This document shows positions 2,554 to 52,287 of a stretch of DNA of 64,000 nucleotides, one piece after another. How positions within the stretch are numbered: position 1 is the stretch's first letter; every line of letters starts with the position of its first letter. Source of the DNA: a virus (lineage: Duplodnaviria; Caudoviricetes); the IMG/VR virus record IMGVR_UViG_3300021311_000141, positions 8,255 to 72,254 of that record; one strand, written 5' to 3'. The position numbers and the translations under genes were made by a program. A model generated the notes under the pieces. It did not search any database and was not told the origin of the DNA. It saw only the letters and a list, made by a program, of their open reading frames with translations.

Positions 2554-4310
2554 TATACGACCTTTGGAAGCGGTTTAGGATCATCGACAAACCACTGCGG
2601 CGGTTTAATAAGCGCCGGGAAAAGCGCATCAGCGGCCTTTTTTACGTCATCATACTGCACCGGAAGCAGCCGTTTTGCGTTGGCAATAAGCATATATGCC
2701 TTGCGCAGGACTTCTGTTTTTGGCGCAATTTGTATCATGCGTATCCAGTGTTCCTGTTCTTCATCACTGACAGATAGGCTCGAATAATAATCCCCAATCT
2801 TTCCCCAGTAGCATAAACCATACTGGGAGCCGAAACGGTCAATCTTGAAGCCGGCAAAACCCGTCGGCTGCGATAGAGCCTCGAACAGCGCCGTATTTGC
2901 GGCCTTTCCAAGAGCCTTGCGCCAAGCATCCAGTGCGGCCTTGGCGTCGGCCCGCTCTGCGGCCTTCTTTTGAGCGACGGCCGTGTACTTCTGCGCGACG
3001 ACGGCAATATCCGGGTTCTTCCGTCGGCAAATAGCAAGTACCAACTTGAAGTGTTCCGGATCCGTTGCGGCAAGCTCGGCAAGCAGCTTTGGGCTGGCGA
3101 ATGCCTGAAAGCCCATGGAGAACACCTCCGAAGAGCCGCCCTCATAGACCTTGCCCACATAGGGATCGATGAAGGAATCGGGGAACGCGACCTCATTGCT
3201 TCCATAGCCAGCATGTGCCAGTTCGCGCAGAGGCTTGGCCGGCCCTGTGGCTCTGTGACGAATGAATTGGTGACAGGCGCGCTGTGAGGCTTTATCCCAA
3301 TTTTCTACAAGGTGGCCTATTTCGTGAAAGAGCGTTGTTTTGTTGAAGTCTCCTTGCACGAAAACTTGAAAGCGCCCGCTTGCAAAAGCACGGTTGCCGC
3401 CACGTTGGAGACAAAATTCCACAGGCCCTAACTTGCCGCCGACAAGCTGGTAAATCTGGGCCATGTCCTGCCGGATGCTCTCTTCGGTAAAACCAAGTTT
3501 TTTGAGCTTGTTGAGGGCATTGTCATTAAAGAATACGGCGTTGCTGGCCCACTCTTTTGCTATTTCGTCGGTGACGATGGAGGCATCCTTAAGCGCTGTA
3601 ATGGTATCTGTCAGTATTGCCTCTTGCGCATCGTTTGCATTTTCGCGCAGGGCGTTGAGCTCTTCATATATCGGAAGTTCTTTTTCGCCTTCCGTGAGCA
3701 GTTTGGCTTCGTATTCTTTTCGGATTTTCCTAAGCGCCTTATGTCTCTTTTGCCACTGTGCCGACGTAGAACCAGGAAGACCCAACGCTTCTTTGTAGCG
3801 CTGATCCCCGTGCGCGGCATCCCACGCCGCATTAAACAACCCTCCAGCAAAGGATTCATCTACGCTTTTGCGAGCGGTCTTTTCGAGCTCTGCCAAGCGT
3901 TTCAGTTTTGGCAATAGCTCCTTGGCCTTTTCGGGTATTAACGGCAGCCTTTGCGCAATAAAATCGTTGCCCTGTTCACGCAGGGCTGCGTCCACATCCA
4001 CATTTTGTCCTGCAGCCTGTAGCCGCGAACGCACGGCCTTGAGGTCATCAGTGTTGAAAATGGCTTCTACGACGTCTGGGTGAGGCAGTCGGGCACGTTC
4101 CGAAAATTCATACAATTCCTCTGCGGCTATCTGTTCCCCCCGCGCATCGCGGGCCAGGACATCGGCCAGAAAATCCAGGTCATCAGCGGCATGGCGTAGT
4201 ATTTCCCCATCTTGCCCAAAACATGAGCCGATAACGCCGATCAGCCCGTCAAGCGTTGTCTGCCTGCGGATCTCCTCTGCAATTTGTTCAGGCGTCCACG
4301 AAAGGGGCAT
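2553..4310 (-). CDS. ddrB: DdrB-like protein with HExxH zinc metallopeptidase-like motif
   Basis: RQDMAQIYQLVGGKL..RAFA..TLFHEIGHLVE..YVGKVY..SEVFSMGFQ; position after darA/ddrA as in P1. Confidence 0.75.
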   Translation of the reverse strand: MPLSWTPEQIAEEIRRQTTLDGLIGVIGSCFGQDGEILRHAADDLDFLADVLARDARGEQIAAEELYEFSERARLPHPDVVEAIFNTDDLKAVRSRLQAAGQNVDVDAALREQGNDFIAQRLPLIPEKAKELLPKLKRLAELEKTARKSVDESFAGGLFNAAWDAAHGDQRYKEALGLPGSTSAQWQKRHKALRKIRKEYEAKLLTEGEKELPIYEELNALRENANDAQEAILTDTITALKDASIVTDEIAKEWASNAVFFNDNALNKLKKLGFTEESIRQDMAQIYQLVGGKLGPVEFCLQRGGNRAFASGRFQVFVQGDFNKTTLFHEIGHLVENWDKASQRACHQFIRHRATGPAKPLRELAHAGYGSNEVAFPDSFIDPYVGKVYEGGSSEVFSMGFQAFASPKLLAELAATDPEHFKLVLAICRRKNPDIAVVAQKYTAVAQKKAAERADAKAALDAWRKALGKAANTALFEALSQPTGFAGFKIDRFGSQYGLCYWGKIGDYYSSLSVSDEEQEHWIRMIQIAPKTEVLRKAYMLIANAKRLLPVQYDDVKKAADALFPALIKPPQWFVDDPKPLPKVV

Positions 4311-4311
4311 A

Positions 4312-5274
4312 TTACGCCTCCGGCTTGTCGCCCCGGCCTTGGGCCTTGCGGCGGCGGATGGGCGTCCAGCGGGCCAGTCTCTCCCTGATTTGCTCCTCGC
4401 GCAGCCAGATGTCCTGCCCCTTGAACACGTCCGCTATTTCCTCTTGCGTCAGGAAACCGGCGTAGAGCTCGCCAAACCATTTTTTGAAATGCTCTTCCAG
4501 GAAAGTGGACTGCGTTTTCATGTCCCCGACCTTGCCCCATGAAAAGGCGCTGGCGTTGTGGATCATCATGGTGCAGTTGGGGGTGGTCTGAATTTCGTCG
4601 CATGGCATCGTGACAAGAGAGCCGGACGAGTAAGCGGTGATGACTTGGGCTATGGTGTTTGCCTTGGTGGCGAGCAGAGCCACATATACGGCTTGGGCTG
4701 AATCCGTGCGGCCGCCGTGCGAATTGACCTTGAGAATCACCGTGTCCACGGAGCGCGCATCGTCGATGGCGCGGACGATTTCGCGGAAAGTGTCCGGCGA
4801 TTCGAACTCTTTGTCGATGTCTATCAGAATGTCGTCTCCGGCGCCGGATTCCTTTGGCCTGCGCCGCACTGCGCTGATCCGCCTTTTCAAATCCCCGTCT
4901 TCGGCCAGGATGGTGACGGCATCCTGCGGGATACCGGCGTTTTCATACACGCCATCTTCCGAGCGGTGCGCGGCCAGATAGGCAATGACGGGCTCATGCA
5001 GGGCCTTGATGTCCCCCCCGATCTCCTTGGCAACGCGCTCCAAAATGCTCACGAACCGCACCACGGGTTCTTTGAGAAATTCTCCGGCCACAAGCTGCTC
5101 ATAGAGCGACTTGAACGCCCCTGCCACTTTGCCTTCCAGCTTGGCGAAAGCGTCGGCAAGCTGCTTCTGAAGGCTGCGCTTGGTCTTGAAGTCCGGGCCG
5201 TTTTCCAGCGAGGCGAAACAGGTTTGAATTTCCTGCTGCAGCGCACGTTTTTCCTTGAATGACAGCGCCATCAC
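4312..5274 (-). CDS. DdrA-like N-terminal domain fused to ClpP-like (S14) serine protease
   Basis: N-terminal ~105 aa resembles P1 DdrA (LVAGEFLKEPVVRFVSIL..YLAAH); C-terminal half has VILKVNSHGG, AYSSGS (Ser), MMIHN (His), QDIWL (Asp) of the ClpP fold. Confidence 0.75.
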   Translation of the reverse strand: MMALSFKEKRALQQEIQTCFASLENGPDFKTKRSLQKQLADAFAKLEGKVAGAFKSLYEQLVAGEFLKEPVVRFVSILERVAKEIGGDIKALHEPVIAYLAAHRSEDGVYENAGIPQDAVTILAEDGDLKRRISAVRRRPKESGAGDDILIDIDKEFESPDTFREIVRAIDDARSVDTVILKVNSHGGRTDSAQAVYVALLATKANTIAQVITAYSSGSLVTMPCDEIQTTPNCTMMIHNASAFSWGKVGDMKTQSTFLEEHFKKWFGELYAGFLTQEEIADVFKGQDIWLREEQIRERLARWTPIRRRKAQGRGDKPEA

Positions 5275-6788
5275 ATCGCCCCCTGCTTTTTCTTGAGCAG
5301 TTCTGTCAGGTGGTCTGCAGCCCGATTGAACAAGGCCTCAAACTCTTCAAAGCGCCCTGCGGCTTCTGCCTGGCCTGCGGCTTCGTCCAACAGCCTGTCC
5401 ACCTTGTCGGTGTCATCGTCATACTTGCCGGCAACAATGTCATTGAGGGTGGTGGCAAACACCGGCGTCGCCGTGTTGGCGCCGGTGTTTCCTCCTTCCG
5501 GCTCTTGGGGGGCTGGATACCAACCCTGGGCATCGTCCATGGCAGTCTGGGCGGAGGTATGCTCCTTTTGTGTGACCCATTCGCCGTCGTTGCGCCAGGT
5601 CTGGACGAGATACCAGTCTTTTCCCTTGTCGCGCACATGGGCGACGCGCATTTCTTCGGGCCGATATTCAGTCTTCGGGAGCGACAGGGGTACATCCAGG
5701 ACAACAGGTTCGGAGGGGTCGGCATTGCCTCTTTCGTGGATAAACCGCCACTGGGCTTCTGCAGATTCCTGCGTTGTGATGGGGAGGTCGATGAGCTTGC
5801 CGTCCTTCAGGCGCATCTTCCAGACACCGCCATCCTTGACATAACTGCTGACGGTTGCGCCGTCAGGCGCACCGACGGAACCGGATTCCACGCCTGCGCC
5901 ATTTCTCCCTGCTCCCTCGCCGGAGGTTCCGGCAGGCTTGCCCCCGCCCTGGGGCCGAGCCTTGCGCATGGCGTCGAGCTTGGCCTGCAGCTCGGCGTTG
6001 ATGGTTTTCTGCTTTTCCAGCAAGGCCAGAGTATTGGAAAGCTGCGCCGTCACCGTTTCAGCATCCTTGGATGCCTGCGCCACCCCGTCCATGAGTTCGC
6101 GCTGCTTGTCCTCGGCGTTCTTCACAGCTTCGCGGGCTTCATCCAACGCCTTGCGCTCCGCAGCGGCTTCCTTCTGGGTGCGCTCAAAGCGGGCACTGTT
6201 TTTCACAACCAACTGGGTGATCCGCTTGCCGATGGATTCAAGGGACACTTCGGAACCGTCCTCCGGGGCCACAACCTGCGTAATGTCCCTTTTGTTCAGC
6301 AGCCATTGGAAGGCCACTATGCGGTCGGACGGGGTGATTTTCTTCCGGTCGCCTTCGGGCGCATGGAAAATCACGGATACCACCTGTCCGTCGGAGAACG
6401 GAAGCTGCACCGTGACATAGGCGAAGCTCCCACGCTTGCGGGGCTTGCCCACAATGGCGTCCAGTGCTGTGATTTCCTTCCCGGCGAGGTGTCGGTTCAG
6501 GACACGCACCACAGCGGCCATGCGGCGCTCTGTCTTGCTGAACTTGTCAACGACGATGGCTTCAAGGATGTAGTCCGGGGAAATTTCATCAGTGCCGGGG
6601 TTGTAATAGGCGTCAACTTCCTCGAACGTGGCGCTTTCCATGAGCATGTCGTAGTCATGCCGCGTGGCGCCGAGCTCGTTCAGGGCATTCACGAGCTCAC
6701 TTTCCGAAAATCCGCGAGGATGCAGATCATCGCAATCAATAATCCGCATGGCGTACACGGGATTCATGGCCTCAACGCGCTCACACAT
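5271..6788 (-). CDS. darA: DarA-like virion head anti-restriction/morphogenesis protein
   Basis: FSDGQVVSVIFHAP..WLLNKRDITQVVAPE..KNSARF (DarA N domain), coiled coil, C-terminal LNRAADHLTELL-type domain; AAGGAG RBS. Confidence 0.88.
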   Translation of the reverse strand: MCERVEAMNPVYAMRIIDCDDLHPRGFSESELVNALNELGATRHDYDMLMESATFEEVDAYYNPGTDEISPDYILEAIVVDKFSKTERRMAAVVRVLNRHLAGKEITALDAIVGKPRKRGSFAYVTVQLPFSDGQVVSVIFHAPEGDRKKITPSDRIVAFQWLLNKRDITQVVAPEDGSEVSLESIGKRITQLVVKNSARFERTQKEAAAERKALDEAREAVKNAEDKQRELMDGVAQASKDAETVTAQLSNTLALLEKQKTINAELQAKLDAMRKARPQGGGKPAGTSGEGAGRNGAGVESGSVGAPDGATVSSYVKDGGVWKMRLKDGKLIDLPITTQESAEAQWRFIHERGNADPSEPVVLDVPLSLPKTEYRPEEMRVAHVRDKGKDWYLVQTWRNDGEWVTQKEHTSAQTAMDDAQGWYPAPQEPEGGNTGANTATPVFATTLNDIVAGKYDDDTDKVDRLLDEAAGQAEAAGRFEEFEALFNRAADHLTELLKKKQGAM

Positions 6789-6790
6789 GG

Positions 6791-7399
6791 CTATGCTCCT
6801 TGCGCCTTCTCAAGTTCGGCGATTTGCGCCTCAAGGGACGCTGTTTTCTTTCGTTCGGCATCCAGGGCCTTTTCTGCGGCTGCGAGTTCGGCGCGCGACG
6901 TTGCCGTGGAGGTGTTGGTGTCGGCCAACTGTTTTTCAAGGTCGGCGTTGGTCTGGGTGAGCTGCTGCAGGTCTTCGGTGGCCTGGGCCAGCTTTTCTTG
7001 GCGAGTGGTTGTGACAGAGGGTTTTGTCGGACGAATCTTGCGGCGTTCTCGCTGTATCTTCGCCCTTGCGTAGGCCTTGGCGTTGTCGTGAACATAGTCG
7101 ATCATCTCGCCGACGGCCTTGTCCATGTTGTCCACGTTGCGCACGGGGACAACCTTGTTGTTCAGCTTGACTTGGTAGATAGTGCCGCCCGCCTTGACCT
7201 TGACAAGCATTTTCTGCCCGTCCTCAAAGATCAGGGTGAAGCTCTTAACCAGCATCCCGCTCTCTCGCTTTGCCTTGTTGGGGGCGTCCACGGAAGCAAC
7301 GGGGCATTCAAACTTGGCAAATTTTTTTAGAATCGGCTTGAGCCCGTTCTCGGTCAATCTGTCAAAGGGCAGCACCAGTTGATTGCTCTTGGGCGGCAT
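6791..7399 (-). CDS. hdf: Hdf-like protein (homolog of DarA fragment)
   Basis: FDRLTENGLKPILKKF..KRESGMLVK..FEDGQ..VKLNNKVVP plus C-terminal coiled coil; directly upstream of darA as in P1. Confidence 0.85.
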   Translation of the reverse strand: MPPKSNQLVLPFDRLTENGLKPILKKFAKFECPVASVDAPNKAKRESGMLVKSFTLIFEDGQKMLVKVKAGGTIYQVKLNNKVVPVRNVDNMDKAVGEMIDYVHDNAKAYARAKIQRERRKIRPTKPSVTTTRQEKLAQATEDLQQLTQTNADLEKQLADTNTSTATSRAELAAAEKALDAERKKTASLEAQIAELEKAQGA

Positions 7400-7508: not shown

Positions 7509-7793
7509 TCAGCATTGCACCCAGATATAGTTGAGCGTCCACATGCCAAGACACACGAGGGAAGGCAGCAGCCAGTCCAGCACGCCCTTGACCGTCCACG
7601 CATCCGGCAGGAACCCGCCGTACCACGGCATGTTGGCCCTCTTGCCGCCGCAGTAGGCGGCGATGTAGCGGTACTCGGCCTGCGCGAACTCCCGGCCCAT
7701 ATACCAGATGGCGGGCAGGAACAGGGCTTCGCTGTTGCCGTGCGTTGCCGCCACGAAAAGGCAGAACAGCAGGGAAATTGCCGCGTGAATCAT
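7509..7793 (-). CDS. Small membrane protein (GREFAQ motif), possible holin/antiholin-like
   Basis: Hydrophobic segments; shares GRE[FH]AQ and W..(L/M)D...P with its neighbour; occupies the P1 lydA/lydB position. Confidence 0.55.
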   Translation of the reverse strand: MIHAAISLLFCLFVAATHGNSEALFLPAIWYMGREFAQAEYRYIAAYCGGKRANMPWYGGFLPDAWTVKGVLDWLLPSLVCLGMWTLNYIWVQC

Positions 7794-7794
7794 G

Positions 7795-8121
7795 CTACAC
7801 CGCCAAAAGAGCCAGCAGGGCCAGTAACAGCGTGGTCACAGTCGGGCAATACAGGTCCATCCGGCTTGGGTAGTCCCATTTCCAGAACTTGGCGGCTTCC
7901 CAGTCGCCCAGCGCGGCATCCTCCGCCCCGCTGAAAAAGTCCTGCTGCTGGGCGTGCTCACGGCCGAAGAAAAATCCAATCGGGGCGGCTGCTCCCGCAC
8001 CTACGGCAAGGGCCGGGGAGACCCACCACAGGGCCAGCGTGACTACGCCCTGCATGAGCGCCGCGTACACGCAATGCTCAATGGGCGTGAGGTCGCCGCC
8101 CAGAAATTCACGGAGATTCAT
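7795..8121 (-). CDS. Small membrane protein (GREHAQ motif), paralog of 7509-7793
   Basis: ATG 8121 (MNLREFLGG) with GGAG RBS; two or three hydrophobic helices. Confidence 0.55.
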   Translation of the reverse strand: MNLREFLGGDLTPIEHCVYAALMQGVVTLALWWVSPALAVGAGAAAPIGFFFGREHAQQQDFFSGAEDAALGDWEAAKFWKWDYPSRMDLYCPTVTTLLLALLALLAV

Positions 8122-8168
8122 TGCCACTCCCGGTTTGGTGGCGGGGCCGTTTGGAGCCCCGCCACGCC

Positions 8169-8288
8169 TCAATCTATTTCCAGGGCAATCTTGAGTTGCT
8201 CAATTTCGTATTGCTGCCGCTTGATGATTGCCGCTTGGGCCTCAACCAAGTCCACAAGCTCAAGAATTGAGCTTGGCACGGAGTTCAT
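8169..8288 (-). CDS. Short coiled-coil peptide (39 aa)
   Basis: MNSVPSSILELVDLVEAQAAIIKRQQYEIEQLKIALEID; overlaps the end of the upstream gene. Confidence 0.35.
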   Translation of the reverse strand: MNSVPSSILELVDLVEAQAAIIKRQQYEIEQLKIALEID

Positions 8289-8484
8289 TGATGCGGTCGC
8301 GGACGGCCTGCCGCTTGGCATGGAGCTCCGCAATGTCATAGGGTGGTTCTTGTCCGGCAAGGACGTACTCCTGGTATTTGGCAACTTTCCAGTCGCCGAT
8401 TTCGGACGCTCCCGAAGTGAGCTTGGACATGCCATCGTGAATTTCCTGTTCCATGTCCATGCGCTGTTCATCAGTCAGAGGCAT
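8260..8484 (-). CDS. Small phage protein of the DWKVAKYQE..PYD..LH..RQA.RD.IN type, possible tail-fibre accessory
   Basis: Motif pattern I recall next to tail-fibre and DGR loci; RBS GGAG. Confidence 0.55.
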   Translation of the reverse strand: MPLTDEQRMDMEQEIHDGMSKLTSGASEIGDWKVAKYQEYVLAGQEPPYDIAELHAKRQAVRDRINELRAKLNS

Positions 8485-8505
8485 AGTGTTCTCCTTCGAT
8501 GTTTG

Positions 8506-9660
8506 TCAGTTGTAGTAGAACAACCGCAAGTAGAGATTGTCAGTGAAGCGAAGGTTCTGTCTGCGATGTGCGTACCGCAACACAGACCCTCGCCAGGACT
8601 GATAGGCATCGCTGACCATCTTGCGCGTCATCAGCCCGCGTTCGAACAGTCCGCGAAAACGCTTCAGCCTTCGCCGTTCCCGCACAAAGGCCGAGTTGTC
8701 GGCCCTCGCTGCTATCCGCCTGCCCACAACTGCGTAGCGGGTTTTCAGATAGGTGAATCCATGCGACAGCCGGACAATTTGCGTCTTTTTGCGATTCACA
8801 AACATGCCAAGCGCCGTGGCTTGCCGCTCAAACTCTCCAAGCGCTTCCATAAGGCGTTGCCTGTCGCTGTGGATGACATATACGTCGTCCATGTAGCGCC
8901 CGTAGTATTTGAACCCCATGGCGCACTTGAAATAATTGTCGATCACTGTGGGGAAGAACACGCCGCCGATTTGTGAAATCTGGCTGCCGATGCCCATGGA
9001 CTTGGACAGTTTCAGCCTGCCCGTGGGCCCCTGATATGCGGCTTGGCGTTCCCTGTGCCGAATGCTGCTGAACGGCACATGCGCGCTCGAAGCGTACTCG
9101 GCATCGGTCATGTAAGAAACGTCGGGGCTGAACGACGACACGACATGCTCCAACAACGGGCGTAGCGATGTGTCGCCGCCCAGGCGGCGCTGCACACTTT
9201 CCAGAAGTTGGGCATGGGGGATGTTGTCAAAGAATTTCGAGAAGTCGATGAGCAACACATACCCGTCAGGGTGGCGCCGCAGGAACTTCTCAAGGTGGAC
9301 TTTCAGGCGTCTGCGCGCGAAATCCACACCCTTGTTTTTCAATGACGCGCCGTTGTCGTATATCAGGTATGGGGAGAGGGCGGGAATGAGGGCATTGTCA
9401 CACAAGGATCGCTGCACAATGCGGTCAGTGATGTGTTGTGACCTGATGGGCCGCACCTTCCCGCGTTCGGCCAAGACAAACTCAAAAAACGGCATTTGCC
9501 GGTATGTTCCGTCCCGCAGGGCGCGGCGAAGCTGGCTGATGTTGCGCAGCAAATTCATCTGGCAGCGCTGCGTGGATGCTTTCCAGTCGCTCCCGCGTTT
9601 CGCCATCTGAAAGGCGTCGAACAGGTTGTTCGCGTCGCTCACAATATCCAGATAGCTCAT
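8506..9660 (-). CDS. DGR reverse transcriptase
   Basis: 384 aa; ERGKVR, DRIVQ, LIDFSKFF, MGIGSQISQ (DGR GxxxSQ signature), YGRYMDD; no maturase or endonuclease tail; adjacent TR/VR pair. Confidence 0.96.
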   Translation of the reverse strand: MSYLDIVSDANNLFDAFQMAKRGSDWKASTQRCQMNLLRNISQLRRALRDGTYRQMPFFEFVLAERGKVRPIRSQHITDRIVQRSLCDNALIPALSPYLIYDNGASLKNKGVDFARRRLKVHLEKFLRRHPDGYVLLIDFSKFFDNIPHAQLLESVQRRLGGDTSLRPLLEHVVSSFSPDVSYMTDAEYASSAHVPFSSIRHRERQAAYQGPTGRLKLSKSMGIGSQISQIGGVFFPTVIDNYFKCAMGFKYYGRYMDDVYVIHSDRQRLMEALGEFERQATALGMFVNRKKTQIVRLSHGFTYLKTRYAVVGRRIAARADNSAFVRERRRLKRFRGLFERGLMTRKMVSDAYQSWRGSVLRYAHRRQNLRFTDNLYLRLFYYN

Positions 9661-9828
9661 ACCGTGCCCCTGTTGGTTCTCATAAGACGGTGAGGCATGT
9701 TCACAGCCGTGCCTGACGTGTCAGACGGCATCATGCGCTCGTGTTTACCCCGCTCTCACGGGGAAGGACTGACCTTCCTTTCCTGTTTACTCGCATCGGC
9801 AACTGCCTACACATAGTGCGAGTACAGC
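9661..9828 (-). ncRNA. DGR TR-RT spacer, predicted structured part of the template RNA
   Basis: Non-coding gap with stems GGAAGG/CCTTCC (9762-9778), CCCC/GGGG (9748-9763), CTGAC/GTCAG nested in GCCGT/ACGGC (~9706-9729). Confidence 0.5.
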
Positions 9829-9949
9829 AAATCGGGCGGACACCGCGCGAGTTGGACGCGTTGTTGTAGTTCGCATTGCCGTTGTTGTTGGCATTGGCGA
9901 AGTTCGTCGACGACGCCACCGCGCCCAACCACCAGTTGTAGCGGGCCTT
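9829..9949 (-). repeat. DGR template repeat (TR)
   Basis: Aligns to 10597-10720; all 19-20 substitutions fall at TR adenines; 11 AAC/AAT codons, 28 adenines. Confidence 0.96.
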
Positions 9950-9955
9950 ACAAGG

Positions 9956-10531
9956 TCAGCCCTGGCTTTTCTTGGAGGGGGCTTTCCGCTTGCCCTCCTT
10001 GATTTGCGCCAATATTCGGTTGTCGGACTTGCGCCACCCCTTGAGCAGCGCTATCTCCTTCTCTATCATCTCAACATATGGCATGAATTTCTCAATATCG
10101 CACGGTATCACATGGATGACGTACTGCATCTCCTGCAAAAGTTGCTCGCAGTTTATGATTGCGCGATTTTGCATGGAGCGGCGTTCCAGATATTCCCTCT
10201 CGTTTATCGCATAGATGGTGTTAGCCCCGATGATGTTTTGCATCAGGTCACGGAGCAATCCCAAAATGGTTTCCCGAAAGTGGTCTATCAACCAATGCGG
10301 ATACCGTTCGATGACCGGCTGCTTGAAGCCGTATTTCTCGGCAATCTCGGCAAGCGCCCGCGTGTCCTCCTCGGACATGCCGCGCATACCCGATAGAACC
10401 TGCAGATTGCGCACCTTGTCCTTGATGGCAAAATCACGCAGCAGCAGATTGGTGAACGCCAGCCGCATCTTGAATGCGGTGTGGTAGAACTCCAAATCTG
10501 ACAATGTGCGCTTGCTGACCGGCACTGACAT
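9956..10531 (-). CDS. avd: DGR accessory variability determinant (Avd-like four-helix bundle)
   Basis: MSVPVSKRTLSDLEFY..IIGANTIY..RRSMQNRAIINCEQLLQE..EIALLKGWRKSD; between target and TR. Confidence 0.85.
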   Translation of the reverse strand: MSVPVSKRTLSDLEFYHTAFKMRLAFTNLLLRDFAIKDKVRNLQVLSGMRGMSEEDTRALAEIAEKYGFKQPVIERYPHWLIDHFRETILGLLRDLMQNIIGANTIYAINEREYLERRSMQNRAIINCEQLLQEMQYVIHVIPCDIEKFMPYVEMIEKEIALLKGWRKSDNRILAQIKEGKRKAPSKKSQG

Positions 10532-10548
10532 ATCTTGCCCTGTATGGC

Positions 10549-10575
10549 ATCCCCGCCCCACAAGGGGGCGGGGAT
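10549..10575. other. DGR target-recognition hairpin/cruciform downstream of VR
   Basis: ATCCCCGCCCC-ACAAG-GGGGCGGGGAT, perfect 11-bp stem, 7 bp past the target stop codon. Confidence 0.8.
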
Positions 10576-10582
10576 TGAAGAT

Positions 10583-11668
10583 TTACGCGAACAGGAAAAA
10601 CGGGCGGACACCGCGCGAGTGGGACGCGCTGGCGTAGTACGCACCGCCGCCGCGGCTGTCGGCATAGGCGAAGGCCGTCGACGACGCCACCGCGCCCAAC
10701 CACCAGGCGTAGCGGGCCGCTCGTCCGTTGATCCACGTCGGGTCGAGCCGAAACAGGGCAAGCTGCGCCTTTTTGCAGCCGACATCGCGGGCGGAGGAAC
10801 TCCAGACCGTGCCGCCGTACACCATGGGTTCGGAACACAGCCCGATGAGCTCATCGGCCCACGCGCTGGCATTCGAGCTGCCGACCAGGGCGGAGCCTGC
10901 CATGCTGTCGGCAGTGGCATTAACGCCGGTTGTCAGCCAATCGCTGTGCCCGACAATGTGGCCGTCCATGCAGTTCGCAGCGTTCAGTTCGCCGTACACG
11001 GTGTTCTGCAGGGTCGCCCACAACGCGCAGCCGCGGAGTGCGCCGGTCGTGTCGTTGGTGGGGTTCATCTGGGCGCTGAACAGCGAGGTGTCGGGCATGA
11101 GGATAAGATGATTTGCCGTGGTTTGCCCGATGGTGTTCGGATTGCTGCCGTCAATGGCCAGGCCGTTGGTGGCGTCAACAGCGCCCATGTACTTCCAGTA
11201 GTTGAAATGGGCGATGCGGAAGTTCACATCGACCGTGCTGCCGCCGTGCGTGAACTTCCTGGTGAAGTAGTCGCCGATGTAGAGGTCGGAGAAGTCCCCT
11301 GCGGCCAGCTTCGCGGACAGCTCGGCCAGCGTATAGACGTTGGTCAGATTCTTGCCGCGGTAGATGCAGTTGTGGGCGGCGGCCACGTCGTCGCCGGTGT
11401 CGGAGCTGCGAAGGATGAGGTTGGCGCAGCTTTTCCCGTCAGTGGCAGCAGTGTCCACATAACTCTTATTCGCCCCATGGTTGGCCGCCGTAGGTGCGGG
11501 AAGCACTGGGGATGATGTGAAGGTTTTAACGCCGCCGATGGTCTCATTATTCACTTTGTGTACTGCGTTGCCCAAAAGCTCTGCGGACTGCCGCAATACG
11601 GAAGAGGTTTCCTCAAGTTCTTCCTCGCAGTTCTGAATCGCCGCGAGCAATTCGTCGGAGGTGGCCAT
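10583..11668 (-). CDS. DGR target: tail-fibre tip/adhesin with probable C-type-lectin-like C-terminal domain
   Basis: ATG 11668 with AAGGAG RBS; N-terminal tail-fibre repeat VHKVNNETIGGVKTF..KSYVD; HNCIYRGKNL, GDFSDLYIGDY, WWL..GVRP C-terminus carrying the VR. Confidence 0.88.
   Translation of the reverse strand: MATSDELLAAIQNCEEELEETSSVLRQSAELLGNAVHKVNNETIGGVKTFTSSPVLPAPTAANHGANKSYVDTAATDGKSCANLILRSSDTGDDVAAAHNCIYRGKNLTNVYTLAELSAKLAAGDFSDLYIGDYFTRKFTHGGSTVDVNFRIAHFNYWKYMGAVDATNGLAIDGSNPNTIGQTTANHLILMPDTSLFSAQMNPTNDTTGALRGCALWATLQNTVYGELNAANCMDGHIVGHSDWLTTGVNATADSMAGSALVGSSNASAWADELIGLCSEPMVYGGTVWSSSARDVGCKKAQLALFRLDPTWINGRAARYAWWLGAVASSTAFAYADSRGGGAYYASASHSRGVRPFFLFA
10597..10720 (-). repeat. 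DGR variable repeat (VR) with IMH at its 3' end
   Basis: Encodes AARYAWWLGAVASSTAFAYADSRGGGAYYASASHSRGVRPF versus TR KARYNWWLGAVASSTNFANANNNGNANYNNASNSRGVRPI; 3 nt longer than TR. Confidence 0.96.
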
Positions 11669-11708
11669 AGTCAAACTCCTTTTGCGGTGTCACCGCGCTT
11701 TTTATTGG

Positions 11709-12299
11709 TTACGATTGGCTTTCCTCGTATCCCAGCTCTGAAGCGCACCATGAAACTATTTCTGCAAGGCGCGTTTCTAATATTGACACACGCGCTGCCA
11801 TATTTGTAAGCAGTGTGTAATATTCAGCAAGCTGCGTCTGATAGGCAGTGATGATATCAGCAGAAATCAAGTCATACTGTTCACCATTGTAATACAGCAG
11901 ATATGTATTGTTTGCCATGAGTGCGCGCGCTTCAATAGCTGCGCCCTGAAAATATATTGACTTCGCACCCGTGTTGTTGACGTTCAACGTGGGATTATTT
12001 GCAGTATTTGTGTTGGCAAACCTTACAATAACCGTTGCACCTTTGCGCAGGATGAAGTTGCTGGCATTAAGGACTTTTTCCGTTGTCCCAGCCGCCGTGG
12101 AACATTCACCGGAAACATGGCTATTCAGTTCTCTACGGACAACCTCAAACTCGGCCTGTGCGTTGGCGCCGGTCACGCCGTTCCGGGCGGTGAGCAGCAC
12201 CATGCCGCCGTCGGTTTCGGCATGTTCCTTGATGAGGGTGTCGCCGGAGCGGCGGAAGTTGACGACCTTCTTGATGGTTTCGGAAATGGAAAAGGGCAT
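11709..12299 (-). CDS. Tail-fibre-associated protein (module A plus tail-fibre domain)
   Basis: N-terminus near-identical to 12384-12893; CSTAAGTTEKV..VRFANTNTANNPTLNVNNTGAKSI is a recurrent tail-fibre domain. Confidence 0.7.
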   Translation of the reverse strand: MPFSISETIKKVVNFRRSGDTLIKEHAETDGGMVLLTARNGVTGANAQAEFEVVRRELNSHVSGECSTAAGTTEKVLNASNFILRKGATVIVRFANTNTANNPTLNVNNTGAKSIYFQGAAIEARALMANNTYLLYYNGEQYDLISADIITAYQTQLAEYYTLLTNMAARVSILETRLAEIVSWCASELGYEESQS

Positions 12300-12300
12300 G
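12148..12300. repeat. Direct repeat A, copy 1 (153 bp)
   Basis: Matches 12742-12894 with 2 mismatches. Confidence 0.95.
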
Positions 12301-12331
12301 GGTACATCCCCTTATGATGAAACACAGCAAT

Positions 12332-12376
12332 GCCCGCGCAGGCTGGCGGTTTTATATCCCGCCCGCCTGCGCGGGC
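12332..12376. terminator. Long intergenic hairpin (terminator or RNA stability element)
   Basis: GCCCGCGCAGGC / GCCTGCGCGGGC 12-bp arms plus inner GGCGG/CCGCC; no clean U-tract. Confidence 0.45.
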
Positions 12377-12383
12377 GAATTGG

Positions 12384-12893
12384 TTAGGCCTGTTCCACGA
12401 TTACCAGGCCACCATCGGCGATGCCTTCGGGCATGGTTTCGGGCGTGCTGGCGACGTGCAGCACGTCCACTTCCTTGTTCTGCACATCGCCCCAGTTCAC
12501 GGTCACATCCATGGATTCCGCCTCGGCAGTCTTCACCCAGCCGTTGGTGGTGTCCTGATAGATGTACTTGGCCGCACCGGCAGCGACGGTGTTGTCGGCG
12601 CTGGCGTCGATCACCCAGCACTGGTCACCCACGTTCATGCCGGTCAGGGCGTCGCGGGCGGCAATGTTGGCCACGACGGACATCTTGGTCTGCCCGTCGA
12701 TGGTGCTCTGCATGCCAGAGATGAGCGTACGGATGGCTTCGAACTCGGCCTGCGCGTTGGCGCCGGTCACGCCGTTCTGGGCGGTGAGCAGCACCATGCC
12801 GCCGTCGGTTTCGGCATGTTCCTTGATGAGGGTGTCGCCGGAGCGGCGGAAGTTGACGACCTTCTTGATGGTTTCGGAAATGGAAAAGGGCAT
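12384..12893 (-). CDS. Tail-fibre-associated protein (module A plus module B)
   Basis: Shares its N-terminus with 11709-12299 and IAARDALTGMNVGDQCWV.DASADNTVAAGAA with 12988-13413. Confidence 0.7.
   Translation of the reverse strand: MPFSISETIKKVVNFRRSGDTLIKEHAETDGGMVLLTAQNGVTGANAQAEFEAIRTLISGMQSTIDGQTKMSVVANIAARDALTGMNVGDQCWVIDASADNTVAAGAAKYIYQDTTNGWVKTAEAESMDVTVNWGDVQNKEVDVLHVASTPETMPEGIADGGLVIVEQA
12570..12667. repeat. Direct repeat B, copy 1 (98 bp)
   Basis: Matches 13141-13238 with 5 mismatches. Confidence 0.92.
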
Positions 12894-12894
12894 G
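12742..12894. repeat. Direct repeat A, copy 2
   Basis: Matches 12148-12300. Confidence 0.95.
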
Positions 12895-12987
12895 ATTTAC
12901 ACTCCTGTGCTTTATTTTGTTCCAGTGCTGTCTCCGGAGTAACAATCACTGGACATGGCCTCGGCCCAATGCTTTGGCCGGATTGAC

Positions 12988-13413
12988 TTATATTTTTTCA
13001 ATATCCACAGTCAGCCTCCCTCCATCCCGCAATCCTTCCGGCATGGACGTTGGCAGCGTGGTTACATGGAGGGCGTCATCCATACTTTCACTCTCTGTTG
13101 TCTTGACCCATCCAGAGGATGCCCCCTGCCAGACATAACCGGCCGCACCGGCAGCGACGGTGTTGTCGGCGCTGGCGTCGAGCACCCAGCACTGGTCACC
13201 GACGTTCATGCCGGTCAGAGCATCACGGGCGGCAATGTCGGGAGCGACAAAGCTTTTCGTGTTCCCTTGAACGGCCTGTCTCAATGACTGCATCTCGTGC
13301 TTAAATTCAGACAAAATGGTTGGGAGATATTTTTTTGTTTCCTCGTCATAGACTTCACTTGTCGGTGTCTTTAGGGGTTTCCCATTGCGTGTAAAATGCG
13401 CTAGATCTACCAT
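12988..13413 (-). CDS. Tail-fibre-associated protein (unique AT-rich N-terminus plus module B)
   Basis: C-terminal half paralogous to 12384-12893. Confidence 0.65.
   Translation of the reverse strand: MVDLAHFTRNGKPLKTPTSEVYDEETKKYLPTILSEFKHEMQSLRQAVQGNTKSFVAPDIAARDALTGMNVGDQCWVLDASADNTVAAGAAGYVWQGASSGWVKTTESESMDDALHVTTLPTSMPEGLRDGGRLTVDIEKI
13141..13238. repeat. Direct repeat B, copy 2
   Basis: Matches 12570-12667. Confidence 0.92.
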
Positions 13414-13426
13414 AATGCACCCCCGT

Positions 13427-14272
13427 TTAGTCTATATGTGTAATATTGACTATCAGCGCAGCATCTTCAGGTGCAACTGATTTGTTATCAACGATAGAGA
13501 TAGGAGCAATTTTTGCCCCTCCGACAGCTGTATATCCAGCAGGGGATAAAGTTTCTGTGAACACAGGTATGACGCTGTTGCCGATACCCATAGCTAACGC
13601 CAGTTCAACACTTGCAATGCGGCGCATTAAAATAATGTTATGCTTTGCAGTATGAACAAATCGCAACATTTCCTGCATCTTGGCAAATTCAACATCATTC
13701 TTGAGATCAATTCTCGCCAGCGATTCCAAAATACTGTTCCTGATTAAACGTATTCTGGAAGCCGTTGCCCTTGCCTCTCGAATCAAAGAATGCTGCACAA
13801 AACCAAATATCTGCACTGATTCTGCGACATCACGCCTATCAACATTGATCATGTCATCCGTGATGTCAGAAGAAATATCCTCAACAGTAACTGTGGCGAG
13901 CAGAATATGGTGGTCATTCAGTTTTTCTCTCGCCACAATTCGCTGATAGCCGGGCTGCGTTTCGACGTAGAATGCCTCAATGACGATATGCCATGTGCCG
14001 GACGCCGGGATTTCCACATACCCAGGGTCGTCCATGGTGACAGTGAGGCTGTAGCCATCGCGCTCCACAACGGCGACGCTGCGGGAGGAGCCGTCCTCAT
14101 GCGTGACAAGCACTTTGCCTGCCCCGCCGGGCTTGACCACGAAGCCGCGGTACACGCCGGGGCTAAGAATGCCAGCAAGTTTACGGTTAAGGGCGCTGGA
14201 TACATACCGCTCGCCAAACCGCACCGACTGGCGCAGCACAGGCGCGGACATTGTTTCGATGGACTGACTCAT
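13427..14272 (-). CDS. Tail fibre protein, P1 gpS N-terminal (baseplate-attachment) homolog, short, with AT-rich coiled-coil C-terminus
   Basis: ERYVSSALNRKLAGILSPGVYRGFVVKPGG resembles P1 gpS EPYLSAALNRKFRGIVDPGFYAGF; follows R. Confidence 0.8.
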   Translation of the reverse strand: MSQSIETMSAPVLRQSVRFGERYVSSALNRKLAGILSPGVYRGFVVKPGGAGKVLVTHEDGSSRSVAVVERDGYSLTVTMDDPGYVEIPASGTWHIVIEAFYVETQPGYQRIVAREKLNDHHILLATVTVEDISSDITDDMINVDRRDVAESVQIFGFVQHSLIREARATASRIRLIRNSILESLARIDLKNDVEFAKMQEMLRFVHTAKHNIILMRRIASVELALAMGIGNSVIPVFTETLSPAGYTAVGGAKIAPISIVDNKSVAPEDAALIVNITHID

Positions 14273-14274
14273 GG

Positions 14275-14712
14275 TTAACCCTCCGTCCCTTCAACGGCTT
14301 CCACGGGGAATGTGAGCGCCGGGTAACTGCGGTCTGCCTCGGTCGGCGTCACCCAGTCGGGAAACGTCGTGCAGACCGCAACCAGATCGCCGTCCTGGTC
14401 GTAGATGCCAATGAGGTTGTATTTATGGGGGGTCGATACCGCGCCGGCGGGTATTTCGCATTTGCAGACGGTGACGCCGTTGGAATACTCGGCCTCCACG
14501 GCTCCCCGGTAAAATTCTTCCGGCACGTCAGTCATGTTGGCTGGGATGTCGAGCAGGACAGGGGCGTCCGGGTCGGAAACATCGACGAGGCCAAAGCCCG
14601 CCCGGAACTCTTCAAAACGGGGGCAGACACCTTGCCCGGCGGCCGCCATGCCGACCTTTTCATAGTATTTATTCAGCAGCTTGGAACGCTGATAGACAGT
14701 TCCGTCCGACAT
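14275..14712 (-). CDS. P1 gpR-like tail fibre attachment/assembly protein
   Basis: YQRSKLLNKYY..YNLIGIYDQDGDLVAVC; synteny 16-R-S. Confidence 0.75.
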   Translation of the reverse strand: MSDGTVYQRSKLLNKYYEKVGMAAAGQGVCPRFEEFRAGFGLVDVSDPDAPVLLDIPANMTDVPEEFYRGAVEAEYSNGVTVCKCEIPAGAVSTPHKYNLIGIYDQDGDLVAVCTTFPDWVTPTEADRSYPALTFPVEAVEGTEG

Positions 14713-16121
14713 CACACATACCCTCCATAGGGATAATCAAGCGGGGCAAAATCCACGCTGATGCCGTCTTCACCGGGGAGACGGTCAAGCGGGTTTTCCA
14801 TCTCCTCAAAAGCCGGCATTGCGGCATGAAAACGGCATCTTTCGGAAGCCGTGGAACAGATGAACGATGCAGGCACAGTGAATGCGCGCGTTTTGCGCTC
14901 CTGCTGGATGCCGAGCGCATGTTGAAAATCCAGCGCAACGCTTTTTTCGAGCTCGCGCAGCACCATGCTGATGGCTGACGTATCAGCCGCCTCGTTGCCG
15001 CTTCGCACTCTGTCGAGAGGGAGCAAATCGCCAAAGCCGTCAGGCAGGTAGCGGTCGAGGCGCCATGCGGATACGTCAAGAAAACGTATGCCCTGGCTCC
15101 GTTCGGTTTCCCCATGCCGTTTGAGCGTGCCGGGCGCAGCGTACACGGTCGAAGTCCTGCCCCGCTTGCCGCTCAACGACATGGCAGGAGCAGAGAGGGG
15201 GACGCAAACAAGCCGTTCGCCTTCGGCATAGACGGTGGAAAGGCGCTGCGGCGCCATGAGTTCTCGCCCCGGCATCACAAGATCAAGCGGCAGCAGGTCG
15301 CCGAATCCGTCGGGGAGAAAACGGTCGAGGTGCCAGTCCGAATCAGCCCAAAAGGCTATGGCGACATGCCGCGAAACGTCGCGCGGCATCTCGAAAACGC
15401 CAATGTCGGCATGGCGCACGTCTGCAGGAGTGTAGTCGTAGCGGGCGCCCAGCGGCCCGAACTGAAGTTCTATCCTGTGGCAGTTGTCCCACGTCACTGA
15501 CATGGCTGGGTCAAACACGCCCAGGTCGTACCGAATGAACCAAAGAAAGCCGTCAAAGACGATATGGAGCGGCTTTGTGCGAACCACCAGCGGGTGCGCC
15601 TCGTCGCGGAAACGGTCTTTGGAAAGGCCCTCTCGAAAGAGCCCCAGCTTGTCCACGCCCACGATGCCGCGCGATGTGAGAAAATACCCGTCCGGCGGAA
15701 TATTCTTCGACCACGCATCCTCAAGCAGGTAATCACTTGTGATGAACTCGGTGCCATATTCCTTGGCGGAAGGAGCAAAGAGCGGATACCACTCAACCGG
15801 GAAATCGCCGAAGTGCCTGCGGAACACGGAGCGCAGAATCAGCTCCATGTCCTTGTATTCAATTTCGAGCCGACGCCATGCCAGGGCTATGGGACGGTCA
15901 GCCTCTTTCGGCATCTCGAAAGAGAAATAGTCGCCCATCTGGCGGATTTTCTTGGCAAGGTCGGCATCGTCCGCCGTGTAGGAAGAGCGCAGCCGTTCGA
16001 GCCTGGACATCTCCGGGTCAAAAAAATCTTCCCAGAGACGTTCCAAGGCTGTGGCGAAGTCGGCCCACCTGGGCTCCTTCGCCTTCGCAGGCGTGAGGCG
16101 GTTTACAAGCCAGTTGTTCAA
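14712..16121 (-). CDS. P1 gp16-like baseplate wedge protein with repeated C-terminal extension
   Basis: WLVNRLTPAK..FLTSRGIV..KPLHIVFDG; LDR[FY]LPDGFGDLLPLD repeated 90 aa apart. Confidence 0.8.
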   Translation of the reverse strand: MNNWLVNRLTPAKAKEPRWADFATALERLWEDFFDPEMSRLERLRSSYTADDADLAKKIRQMGDYFSFEMPKEADRPIALAWRRLEIEYKDMELILRSVFRRHFGDFPVEWYPLFAPSAKEYGTEFITSDYLLEDAWSKNIPPDGYFLTSRGIVGVDKLGLFREGLSKDRFRDEAHPLVVRTKPLHIVFDGFLWFIRYDLGVFDPAMSVTWDNCHRIELQFGPLGARYDYTPADVRHADIGVFEMPRDVSRHVAIAFWADSDWHLDRFLPDGFGDLLPLDLVMPGRELMAPQRLSTVYAEGERLVCVPLSAPAMSLSGKRGRTSTVYAAPGTLKRHGETERSQGIRFLDVSAWRLDRYLPDGFGDLLPLDRVRSGNEAADTSAISMVLRELEKSVALDFQHALGIQQERKTRAFTVPASFICSTASERCRFHAAMPAFEEMENPLDRLPGEDGISVDFAPLDYPYGGYV

Positions 16122-16240: not shown

Positions 16241-17662
16241 CTATCCGTCCCTGTACGAAAGTTCAATGACCGTGGCGTCCATGTCAATGCTGACCATCTG
16301 GTAAATGAGATCCGCCTTGGGCTGCCCCTGTATGGTGGCCTCGAACCATGCCCCGGAATCCTTTTCAAAGTAACCTGTGGAATAGACAGCCTCATAGACC
16401 TCGTGCAAGAGCACCACGTCCCGCCGTGTGGGTGATGTCTTGCCGTAGGCGGCATCCAGCGCGTTTACGATGGCTGACTTTACTTCCGACAGGACGCAAT
16501 CTTTCAGCACCTTCCCGGTAATATTCAGGGAAAATTCAATATGCTCCGGCTCGTACCATTGGAAATTGCGGCACATGAACGGAACATCGCGTATCGCCTG
16601 CATGGCAACGTCTTTGATGTCGCGCTTTGGAGAATAGGCGCATATCCATATTTTGTTGATATGGTTTATGTCGTATCCCCACATTTTTTCGGCTTCTTCC
16701 TCGCCCCAGGCAACAGCAAATACAATTTCAGGGAAACGTCGCCGCAGGAAATACTTGTAGTCATTGTCCCATACAAGACGCTCATTATACACAGGCGCAT
16801 AGTGCAGATCGCGCCGCATCTCTTCCGTGTCTTCCTGATTGACGCCGTTTTGGATGGTCTGCGACACCGCAATTTGCGCTGCGGCAATCTGGCCCATATC
16901 ATCCGTGATTTCATCAACGGGATAAAGCGTCTGTTTTTCCAGCAGCACCACATTCCCGTCAGTGAGCACGACATCCACGCGCACCTTGGAGCCTGCTGCG
17001 GGTATCTTGCCGAAGTCGCCGTTGCCGAAACGTATGCCTATCTGGTCGGTGAAATGGTAGAACTCGTCAAACACCAGAGAATCGGAGTAGGAATTGGTCA
17101 GCAGCCGGTCATAGTTCCACTCGACGTAGTTCTCCCCGTCTTCGGCCACGAATACCCGAAAAGACACCACATGGCGCGAGATGTCACGCCCCAGGAGCAG
17201 TTCATAGAACGGCGTGGCCGCGTCGATGGCAAATTCCAGAGTTTCCCTGCTGCGTTGTTCCACCGGCGCGTCCACGCTGCCGCCGGCGGGGACGGTTATG
17301 GTGTCGGTCAGCGTGAACACAACCTGCGCGTCCGACATAAACTCGCGCTCGCGCACCAGAGTAAAGGGATATTCTCCCTGATTTGTCACCGTGACCCGTC
17401 CCGCAGCCGGAATGGGCTTACGGGGCATATATTCCATGCCTTCGCCGTGCGCGAGGATGGAGGAACGGTTCAGCGCGGTGTCAATGAATGCCTCATGCCT
17501 GGCACGCTCGACTTTATTGGCGGCATCTTCAATGGCCCATCCAATGAAGATGGCAAGATGCTTGACGAATTGCGAGCCAGTGAGGTCTTTCCATGAATCC
17601 ATGCCGGCGAGTTCTGTTTTCAATCTCTCGAAAGCCGCATCGGAAAGTATCATTGCGCGCAC
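16241..17662 (-). CDS. bplA: Baseplate J-like protein BplA
   Basis: GSQFVKHL..FIDTALNRSSILA..GIRFGNGDFG..VWDNDYKYFL..AWGEEE..INKIWI. Confidence 0.85.
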   Translation of the reverse strand: MRAMILSDAAFERLKTELAGMDSWKDLTGSQFVKHLAIFIGWAIEDAANKVERARHEAFIDTALNRSSILAHGEGMEYMPRKPIPAAGRVTVTNQGEYPFTLVREREFMSDAQVVFTLTDTITVPAGGSVDAPVEQRSRETLEFAIDAATPFYELLLGRDISRHVVSFRVFVAEDGENYVEWNYDRLLTNSYSDSLVFDEFYHFTDQIGIRFGNGDFGKIPAAGSKVRVDVVLTDGNVVLLEKQTLYPVDEITDDMGQIAAAQIAVSQTIQNGVNQEDTEEMRRDLHYAPVYNERLVWDNDYKYFLRRRFPEIVFAVAWGEEEAEKMWGYDINHINKIWICAYSPKRDIKDVAMQAIRDVPFMCRNFQWYEPEHIEFSLNITGKVLKDCVLSEVKSAIVNALDAAYGKTSPTRRDVVLLHEVYEAVYSTGYFEKDSGAWFEATIQGQPKADLIYQMVSIDMDATVIELSYRDG

Positions 17663-17664: not shown

Positions 17665-18018
17665 CTAGAGCTTGATTTGCAGGTTTTCCTGTCCGTACTG
17701 GTGGACAATGACCACATGCGCAAGGTCAATGTCCCTGACTTCCACATTGACGGCAACAAGCCGCAGGTCGTCTATGTCCAGGGGCATCTTCCGCGAAAGA
17801 GCAAGTTCAATCTGCACTTCAAGGCCGTTTCCTTCCGACAGCGGATCGTGCTTGAACCTGGACAGGTTGTGCCCCCAGGACGGATTGTTGGCGACCGTGC
17901 CTTCCGGGGTGGCCAGCCATTCTTGAATCCGCTCTGACATGGCGTTGCCTTCCAGCGTCCGGGCCATGTCCGACGCGGGCGCGGAACGCATCCGCCAGCT
18001 TGCTTCCTCAAATGCCAT
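17665..18018 (-). CDS. pmgA: PmgA, gp25-like baseplate wedge protein
   Basis: EWLATPEGTVANNPSWGHNL..FKHDP; synteny sit-pmgA-bplA. Confidence 0.8.
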   Translation of the reverse strand: MAFEEASWRMRSAPASDMARTLEGNAMSERIQEWLATPEGTVANNPSWGHNLSRFKHDPLSEGNGLEVQIELALSRKMPLDIDDLRLVAVNVEVRDIDLAHVVIVHQYGQENLQIKL

Positions 18019-49782: not shown

Positions 49783-49980
49783 TTATCCTTTTGTTTAGAG
49801 CATGGAACAATGGCCCCATGCAAAGTTACAAAAGTTCTCCCGCTCATTTACACATTGCCCCTCGTGGATCCGTGTGGCGCGTTGCGGTGATTCTCCCCGG
49901 CTGCATCCTGTGGAGATCATACAGTCGGGCAGAATTTCCAACCCCGGAAGACGCCCTGCATCGCTGCCTTGAGGGGACGG

Positions 49981-50241: not shown

Positions 50242-50247
50242 GGGGTC

Positions 50248-50310
50248 TTTGTATGTCGAACGACATTAGGTGTCAACAAAAATTTTGTCGAACGACTTTT
50301 GACGAACGAC
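50248..50310. promoter_or_regulatory. cro promoter and right operator
   Basis: Minus strand TTGACA (50276-71), 17 bp, TACAAA (50253-48); GTCGAACGAC at 50255 and 50287, GACGAACGAC at 50301. Confidence 0.8.
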
Positions 50311-50333
50311 AAGCCTTGATTGTAGGTGAAGCC

Positions 50334-52279: not shown

Positions 52280-52287
52280 CTAATTTT

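Follow-up and report, generated by a model that had tools for sequence, protein, structure and literature searches.

In phage P1 the interval between the tail-fibre genes and hdf holds the Cin invertible fibre switch, and a stretch of 64,000 nucleotides from a relative of P1 raises the question of how a quite different diversifier came to occupy the same place. This stretch, hereafter the window (bases 8255-72254 of the 72,254-bp IMG/VR provirus record IMGVR_UViG_3300021311_000141, CheckV completeness 74%), carries a diversity-generating retroelement (DGR) between its fibre genes and a homolog of hdf. An initial annotation proposed that a P1-like phage had swapped two-state DNA inversion for retroelement hypermutation and, as part of this event, had split its long fibre into several subunits. 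The analysis below leads to another answer: the element is very probably a canonical, active DGR that diversifies the distal fibre subunit in a P1-like myovirus carried as a prophage by gut Desulfovibrionaceae, located in a receptor-binding hotspot where cin was acquired independently.

Genes were called as open reading frames (ORFs) and annotated by Pfam and PHROG scans and by blastp and tblastn against the annotated P1 genome (NC_005856, loci L001 and L002). The minus strand is the coding strand for every gene in 1-22200, and the parts of the fibre region described below lie on it. In the fibre region the order is sit-like, pmgA, bplA, 16-like, R-slot gene, a gene matching the N-terminal part of S (S-N), three small modules, the DGR target, avd, the template repeat (TR), the reverse transcriptase (RT), three small ORFs and hdf; from 16 to hdf this is the order that had been read from the sequence initially.

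The RT (8506-9660, 384 aa) was recognised by Pfam RVT_1 (2.8e-14) and PHROG 1423 (9.5e-64) and carries the DGR-type motif IGSQISQ at residue 224 and YMDD at residue 256; a scan with NCBIfam returned sub-threshold matches alone. A spacer (9661-9831) separates it from the TR (9832-9947), which is rich in AAC and AAT codons and lies between avd and the RT gene. The avd gene (9956-10561, with a likely ATG start at 10531) encodes a long Avd of 191-201 aa that matched PHROG 3206, 'Avd protein of DGR' (E 2.4e-9, aa 94-198), with no Pfam match, and its full length (~197-200 aa) is kept at 47-55% in related cassettes. Its N-terminus reaches ~60-70 residues beyond the Avd profile, an extension that was full-length in at least 10 related cassettes. 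The target gene (10583-11668, 361 aa) was identified from its structural model, fold matches, homologs and PHROG matches. It ends in the variable repeat (VR; 10597-10718, 119 nt plus one extra GGC codon), which stops 11 nt ahead of the target stop codon. A GC-rich hairpin with an 11-bp stem (10549-10575) was found 8 nt past this codon, with a DNA fold of -15.2 kcal/mol (z -4.6) that was matched by none of 200 shuffles. When TR and VR were compared, at least 16 of the 28 TR adenines were substituted, as against none of the 88 other positions; no second VR was found across the 72-kb record. Each of the marks of a DGR was found here: a DGR-type RT, TR/VR differences confined to adenines, a C-terminal VR in a ligand-binding fold, Avd and VR-specific diversity.

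The last of these marks came from natural variants. A protein search with the target returned a protein 96% identical to it (P0001), whose contig, an independent ENA assembly (L181), is ~98% identical to the window in nucleotides and has the same gene order (its avd gene call is 191 aa long). Between the window and L181 no differences were found in the TR (122 nt), in the TR-RT spacer (165 nt) or in the hairpin, unchanged in L181, together with the end of the VR, the initiation of mutagenic homing site (IMH; 49 nt in all), and the rest of the target gene had four in 950 nt. The VR showed 19 differences in 122 nt, all of them adenine-templated, and at the protein level each falls where the TR encodes Asn. 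In metagenomic run X3, a contig covering RT and TR (8596-9908) had a single difference from the window in 1313 nt, and a contig covering avd, VR and target (9961-11292) had 26 differing sites. Such VR-only divergence is the footprint expected of recent mutagenic homing and, judged from these sequences, the DGR appears to be currently active. The extra in-frame GGC codon of the VR (10650-10660, beside an (AAC)3 run) was absent from the TR, from L181, from the run X3 contig and from every aligned family member; slippage of the RT on the AAC run with subsequent A-mutagenesis would account for it, and so would a GGC duplication at a later time.

The phage was also present in four independent animal-gut metagenomes. 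Contig breaks at the TR and VR, seen in three runs, were set aside as evidence of VR heterogeneity, because the TR/VR repeat explains them equally. The TR core (9851-9913) attracted many unrelated gut-metagenome contigs, with a depth of 54-129 compared to ~8 elsewhere and loose ends on both sides; since so many unrelated contigs are recruited there, the window-type DGR cassette family is abundant in animal guts.

Regarding the protein that is being varied, the target consists of an N-terminal long helix, a fibre-like linker and a 270-aa C-terminal C-type-lectin-like domain related to DUF6273. Its structure was modelled with AlphaFold (AF2) from an 86-sequence alignment, and residues 90-361 reached a predicted local distance difference test score (pLDDT) of ~97, compared to 54 with a 12-sequence alignment. 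Searched against the PDB with VIA-align, the fold matched 9qa6_A, the N-terminal domain of the Thomasclavelia immunoglobulin A (IgA) peptidase (Z 13.4), the C-type-lectin-like C-terminal domain of Lcl (Z 6.9) and the DGR variable protein TvpA (Z 5.5). Foldseek of the model against the PDB gave no match at E<=0.001, and the target-family profile found nothing meaningful among PDB sequences. Many homologs at 33-40% identity have precomputed matches to PF19789 (DUF6273), and closer ones have collagen or Phage_fiber_2 N-termini; PF19789 did not match the target even at E 5, and the homolog P0035 scored 22.7 bits against a cut-off of 23.5.

The target is probably a distal receptor-binding tail-fibre subunit located in the virion. 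As its fold neighbours include the cellular C-type-lectin-like proteins Lcl and TvpA, it might instead be encoded by the prophage to act on the cell surface or after secretion, with a diversification that serves the host, like the targets of cellular DGRs (Legionella LdtA, Treponema TvpA). Such a role is highly improbable, because the target gene is co-oriented within the tail-fibre block, its residues 32-78 match phage tail-fibre PHROGs, no N-terminal hydrophobic stretch is seen by eye, the close homologs bear the collagen or Phage_fiber_2 N-termini mentioned above and, in sister loci, the VR ends fibre proteins of 560-940 aa encoded directly after S-N.

The resemblance of the surroundings to P1 is extensive. 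About 25 collinear P1 homologs at 25-38% amino acid identity (blastp and tblastn) were found in the record, including in P1 order pro, prt, darB, ddrB, darA, hdf, S, 16, bplA, pmgA, sit, pmgB, tub, pmgC, bplB and pmgG, and further sheath 22, capsid 23, 5, 6, 25, 26, pacB and pmgT. On the upstream side of the fibre genes lie the sit-like gene (18031-22197), pmgA (17665-18018), bplA (16241-17662, 29.5% identity to P1 BplA) and a gene for a 16-like baseplate or tail protein of 469 aa (14712-16121; PHROG 2015), the N-terminal 200 aa of which are 27% identical to P1 16 (blastp E 2e-20). The R-slot protein (14275-14715, 146 aa) was not linked to P1 R by direct BLAST or PHROG searches; profile-profile comparison of its family with the P1 R family by hhalign gave 96.7% probability (E 4e-10, 115 columns), which makes it a remote homolog, and it is kept at 30-77% across P1-like loci. 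In S-N (13427-14272, 281 aa), residues 13-153 match residues 20-184 of P1 S (31.5%, blastp E 4e-16), with tail-fibre PHROGs 19162, 2631 and 454; the match is to the N-terminus of P1 S only, and the C-terminal half of S-N is coiled-coil-looking by eye. On the other side of the element, the Dar anti-restriction block opens with the hdf homolog (6791-7399), recognised by PHROG 1620 (1e-35) and by a blastp match to P1 Hdf (E 5e-15).

The P1 record itself has the order 16, R, S, U, U', Sv', cin, lydC, lydA, lydB, hdf, as stated in the initial annotation, and the assignment of the window to P1-like phages likewise agrees with the flanking homologs. That the DGR sits at the exact Cin locus holds for the interval, which equals that of S-C, U, U', Sv', cin and lyd in P1, and has to be relaxed for two of its neighbours, as R is a remote homolog and the small ORFs adjoining hdf showed no sequence homology to the P1 Lyd proteins, the 125-aa one also falling outside the P1 Lyd PHROGs. 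The lack of an invertase and of an inverted cassette was borne out: neither PF00239 resolvases/invertases (the control search was positive in 12 of 14 genomes) nor PF00589 recombinases were found in the whole 72-kb record, and no long inverted repeats or cix-like repeats were found in it, just short chance inverted repeats. Because tblastn gave no match to plasmid-prophage genes within P1 record positions 14000-94800 (a span with repA, parA and parB; cre lies outside it), no PF00589 recombinase was found and IMG/VR classes the record as a provirus of 74% completeness, the P1-like membership covers the virion and Dar modules only.

Was one system, then, exchanged for the other? P1-like loci were gathered via BplA alignments (80 from IMG/VR and 16 from species-representative genomes, plus plasmids L083 and L084, the window and P1), and each was scored for its content between bplA and hdf, a check that had been named beforehand. 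In crown P1 loci, with BplA ~100% identical to that of P1, S, U and lyd were found, and cin was detected in eight. About 25 Pantoea-type loci had R, S, U and lydB with neither cin nor RT. Marine and other loci (Vibrio, Kiloniella, Xenorhabdus, Spartinivicinus and others; ~12 without cin and DGR) had R and a short S-N, or nothing, before hdf. In the clade of the window, whose hosts are Desulfovibrio, Bilophila, Mailhella and Desulfocicer (Desulfovibrionaceae/Desulfobacterota), all loci that were long enough carry an RT with its own A-specific TR/VR pair. In the BplA tree the DGR loci form one clade (support 99/96) of nine rows, six with a DGR, three on contigs that are too short and none DGR-less, while cin is restricted to crown Escherichia coli P1, on the opposite side of the tree, and the Pantoea-type and marine lineages, without cin and without a DGR in this slot, lie between the two.

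A true swap, in which a DGR took the place of a Cin/C-segment switch that an ancestor had possessed and lost, draws on the identity of the interval in P1 and the window and on the fact that Cin and the DGR both act on the distal fibre end. It is nevertheless very unlikely, given the confinement of cin to the crown loci, the large number of in-between loci with neither system and the lack of cix-like repeats or invertase remnants in the window record. Because cin is confined to crown P1, the lineages between lack both systems and the DGR loci form their own clade, the tree indicates that cin and the DGR are probably two independent acquisitions at one hotspot, and the proposal that inversion was swapped for hypermutation was not upheld. 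Nor does the split of the long fibre fit as part of such an event. A stand-alone short S-N was found in L084, L086, L094, L165, L175-L179 and the marine plasmid p0908, and those of L084, L175-L179 and p0908 are marine P1-like plasmids and loci from metagenome-assembled genomes (MAGs) without a DGR in the slot; because of these DGR-less cases, the split appears to be older than the DGR or independent of it.

The two systems can be compared directly. The C-segment with Cin occupies the same interval in P1, after R and S-N and before lyd and hdf, and has the same apparent purpose, a variable receptor-binding fibre end. In P1 this is a two-state DNA inversion performed by a serine recombinase, whereas in the window it would be open-ended hypermutation, without a recombinase, inverted repeats or U-type chaperone genes, and according to the BplA tree the two are unrelated by descent.

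The preferred reading, an active fibre-diversifying DGR in a hotspot that cin reached on its own, rests on observed facts: the parts of the element, the A-specific TR/VR divergence, the VR-only divergence of natural variants, the synteny with P1 and the phylogenetic distribution. Several points weigh against it. The slot content of three members of the DGR clade could not be scored on their short contigs; the target falls below the Pfam thresholds for both DUF6273 and Phage_fiber_2; simple template copying does not explain the extra VR codon; an invertase could lie beyond the ends of a provirus record that is 74% complete; and the roles given to the target and the fibre proteins are predictions from sequence and a structural model.

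In its mechanism the element would follow the DGR of the Bordetella phage BPP-1. By this analogy, the RT together with Avd would copy TR RNA to cDNA, adenines would be misread in the course of the copying and retrohoming would follow the same steps as in BPP-1, where a hairpin is said to act in target recognition and the TR-RT spacer in priming; the hairpin and spacer of the window may have these same functions. The DGR lies where the fibre block ends distally, with S-N, the short adaptor towards the baseplate, on one side and the lyd-slot/hdf (Dar) operon on the other. The same interval in E. coli P1 is filled by S-C, U, U', Sv' and cin, and it can be regarded as a receptor-binding hotspot of P1-like genomes. 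In the Desulfobacterota branch DGRs have settled in this hotspot, and cassettes unrelated to one another have probably followed there in turn; in the enterobacterial branch, Cin would have been gained separately.

Site-specific inversion and mutagenic retrohoming, which diversify host range by unrelated mechanisms, would then have been recruited independently to one structural and genomic position in one phage lineage and, because of this double recruitment, the slot is likely to be a general receptor-binding hotspot. P1-like phages are extended by these data to gut sulfate reducers (Desulfovibrio, Bilophila), and a natural system with cultured hosts becomes available (L171 lies in a Desulfovibrio isolate genome) for the study of DGR activity, cassette exchange and modular fibre assembly. 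The understanding of the DGR mechanism is unchanged by the window element.

With respect to known systems, the window shares with BPP-1 (mtd-avd-TR-brt) the gene order target (VR), avd, TR, RT, the adenine-specific mutagenesis, the VR at the C-terminus of a C-type-lectin-like fibre tip, and the GC-rich invariant VR end followed by a hairpin. It differs in that the target is DUF6273-related and not Mtd, Avd has ~190-200 aa vs ~130 aa in BPP-1, the backbone is that of a P1-like myovirus and the RT is distantly related.

Targets of the DUF6273 class have been reported from gut phages (PMC11792537, PMC10743442, bioRxiv 10.1101/2024.10.15.618418). Those of Faecalibacterium Toutatisvirus/Lagaffe-type prophages and of the tentaclin paper share with the window the C-terminal domain family, the VR at the extreme C-terminus and the gut habitat; these phages are of siphovirus type with Firmicutes hosts, whereas in the window the cassette is grafted on a P1-like fibre via a different N-terminus. 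In Desulfovibrio piger, Mu-like prophages with DGRs have been reported (PMC12724379), with hosts of the same family as the window, an Avd-like protein and tail-fibre or FGE-type targets, on a backbone that is Mu-like and not P1-like.

The nearest precedent in backbone is given by p0908 (NC_010113.1) and pAMBAS45 (NC_018680.1), the P1-like nature of which has been described (PMC4132613). Both have a P1-like backbone, a stand-alone short S-N, an R-slot homolog and a complete DGR with annotated Avd and RT. The DGR of these plasmids has an FGE/SUMF1-type target and is part of the baseplate cluster, where homologs of P1 genes 25 and 6 flank it, and the slot from S-N to hdf is empty; the RT is 24% identical to that of the window and 43% identical to that of L088, a Desulfobacterota locus. 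The p0908 element (L182) occupies record positions 49890-52805 with its FGE/SUMF1-type target, Avd and RT, and in pAMBAS45 an RT of equal similarity lies about as far from bplA. A DGR in a P1-like backbone is thus already known, and the window adds a DGR that is itself ordinary and active, set in a new backbone and in a slot that is of note. Its layout was absent from the GenBank phages and PLSDB plasmids examined: megablast of the region against both gave no match, tblastn of the RT at E 1e-20 found nothing among plasmids and non-P1 gut phages only among phages, and among the papers searched none was found that combines a DGR with P1-like phages.

The contents of the slot also vary within the Desulfobacterota clade. 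Among themselves, the RTs of L086, L088, L094, L166, L167, L171 and L172 are 43-59% identical, and they belong to elements whose VRs end in GxRLAK; their identity to the window RT is only 23-27%, and the RT of L165 is similarly distant from it. Because three unrelated RT lineages occupy the same slot in these sister prophages, cassettes there appear to turn over. The nearest relatives of the window cassette were found elsewhere, in L003 (RT 58%, target tip 64%, Avd 51%) and in L004-L016 (~50%), with no P1-like gene within 10 kb; because of this, target tip, Avd, TR and RT seem to move as a unit between phage types. A broader picture can be offered tentatively, and we consider it possible rather than likely: the end of the fibre block in Desulfobacterota P1-like phages would be a landing pad on which phages of unrelated types repeatedly exchange whole cassettes (at least three RT lineages, one of them shared with marine P1-like plasmids at another locus), to which recombination of A and B modules and occasional RT slippage altering VR length would be added. 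If this were so, host range would be tuned at three nested scales, by point hypermutation, by loop length and by module swapping.

Between S-N and the target, three small genes encode mosaic fibre modules. The first, m141 (12988-13413), has an X-B architecture with matches to tail-fibre PHROGs 7946 and 32345; its gene was also called in L181 and has a homolog in L165. The second, m169 (12384-12893; PHROG 7946), has an A-B architecture, and the third, m196 (11709-12299), consists of A-Y and a C-terminal stretch that is coiled-coil-looking by eye. The N-terminal 167 nt of m169 and m196 are 96% identical, and m141 and m169 have a common C-terminal B part with 55% amino acid identity. The Atlas structure neighbours of m196 are N-terminal parts of tail-fibre proteins (PF12571, Mtd_N and DUF6273-bearing fibres) with TM scores of 0.5-0.6, and in other phages an m196-like module and a DUF6273 tip occur in one fused protein. 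The layout is not peculiar to the window: L165, a goat-rumen Desulfovibrionaceae MAG (BplA 64%), has the same S-N, three modules, target, long Avd, TR and RT, with an m196 homolog at 51% identity.

S-N, the modules and the target may be joined into one fibre. The common C-terminal domain of m141 and m169 fits such a chain, with A docking on B, and so does the N-terminal fusion of m196-like modules to DUF6273 tips in other phages. It is also quite conceivable, if somewhat less likely than not, that each module and the target is an alternative tip with its own docking on S-N, in parallel with the others, in a mixed or branched set of fibres: the near-identical N-terminal domain of m169 and m196 is what competitors for one docking site would have, L086-type loci have the target directly after S-N, and L094 has two long fibres with a common N-terminal 500 aa and the VR on only one of them. 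The second fibre gene of L094 (18294-21119 of that locus, 941 aa) lies downstream of the RT, and the ~500 N-terminal residues of its product are 42% identical to those of the DGR target, with another C-terminus. The arrangement resembles a pair of alternative fibres that share one docking domain, of which only one is diversified.

Nowhere do the window and L181 differ more than in the modules, and m169 reaches 14.7% divergence. Positions 12021-12457 (from the N-terminal half of m196 to the end of m169) are replaced by an unrelated sequence of similar length in L181 and also in one run X5 contig; the stretch was without cover in runs X3-X5, with 12120-12390 uncovered. The replacement points to probable module swapping between strains. 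In the gap between m169 and m196 (12332-12376) there is an inverted repeat of 18 nt, its arms 94% complementary and separated by a loop of 9 nt, which may be a transcriptional or translational signal.

Between the RT and hdf, the first of the three small ORFs (8169-8471, 100 aa, 74 aa as called in L181) has a C-terminus that is coiled-coil-looking by eye and a weak homolog adjoining the L013 RT. The second (7795-8172, 125 aa; PHROG 1443) encodes a small membrane protein with two hydrophobic segments in the position of lyd in P1, and the third (7509-7793, 94 aa; PHROG 1443 at 6e-19) is a small membrane protein paralogous to it. The two-transmembrane-segment ORF of 125 aa differs from its L181 counterpart at 13.5% of bases, compared to 0-0.4% in the neighbours on both sides, which suggests that this gene was replaced locally or is under strong pressure to diversify.

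Beyond these ORFs, hdf is followed by darA-like, ClpP-type protease, ddrB-like and darB-like genes, the protease-domain protein being of ClpP/NfeD type with 320 aa, and all are contiguous on one strand in window positions 1-7399. This contiguous order from hdf to darB is common to the Vibrio and Spartinivicinus P1-like plasmids, whereas in P1 darB is separate from the hdf-darA-ddrA-ddrB operon.

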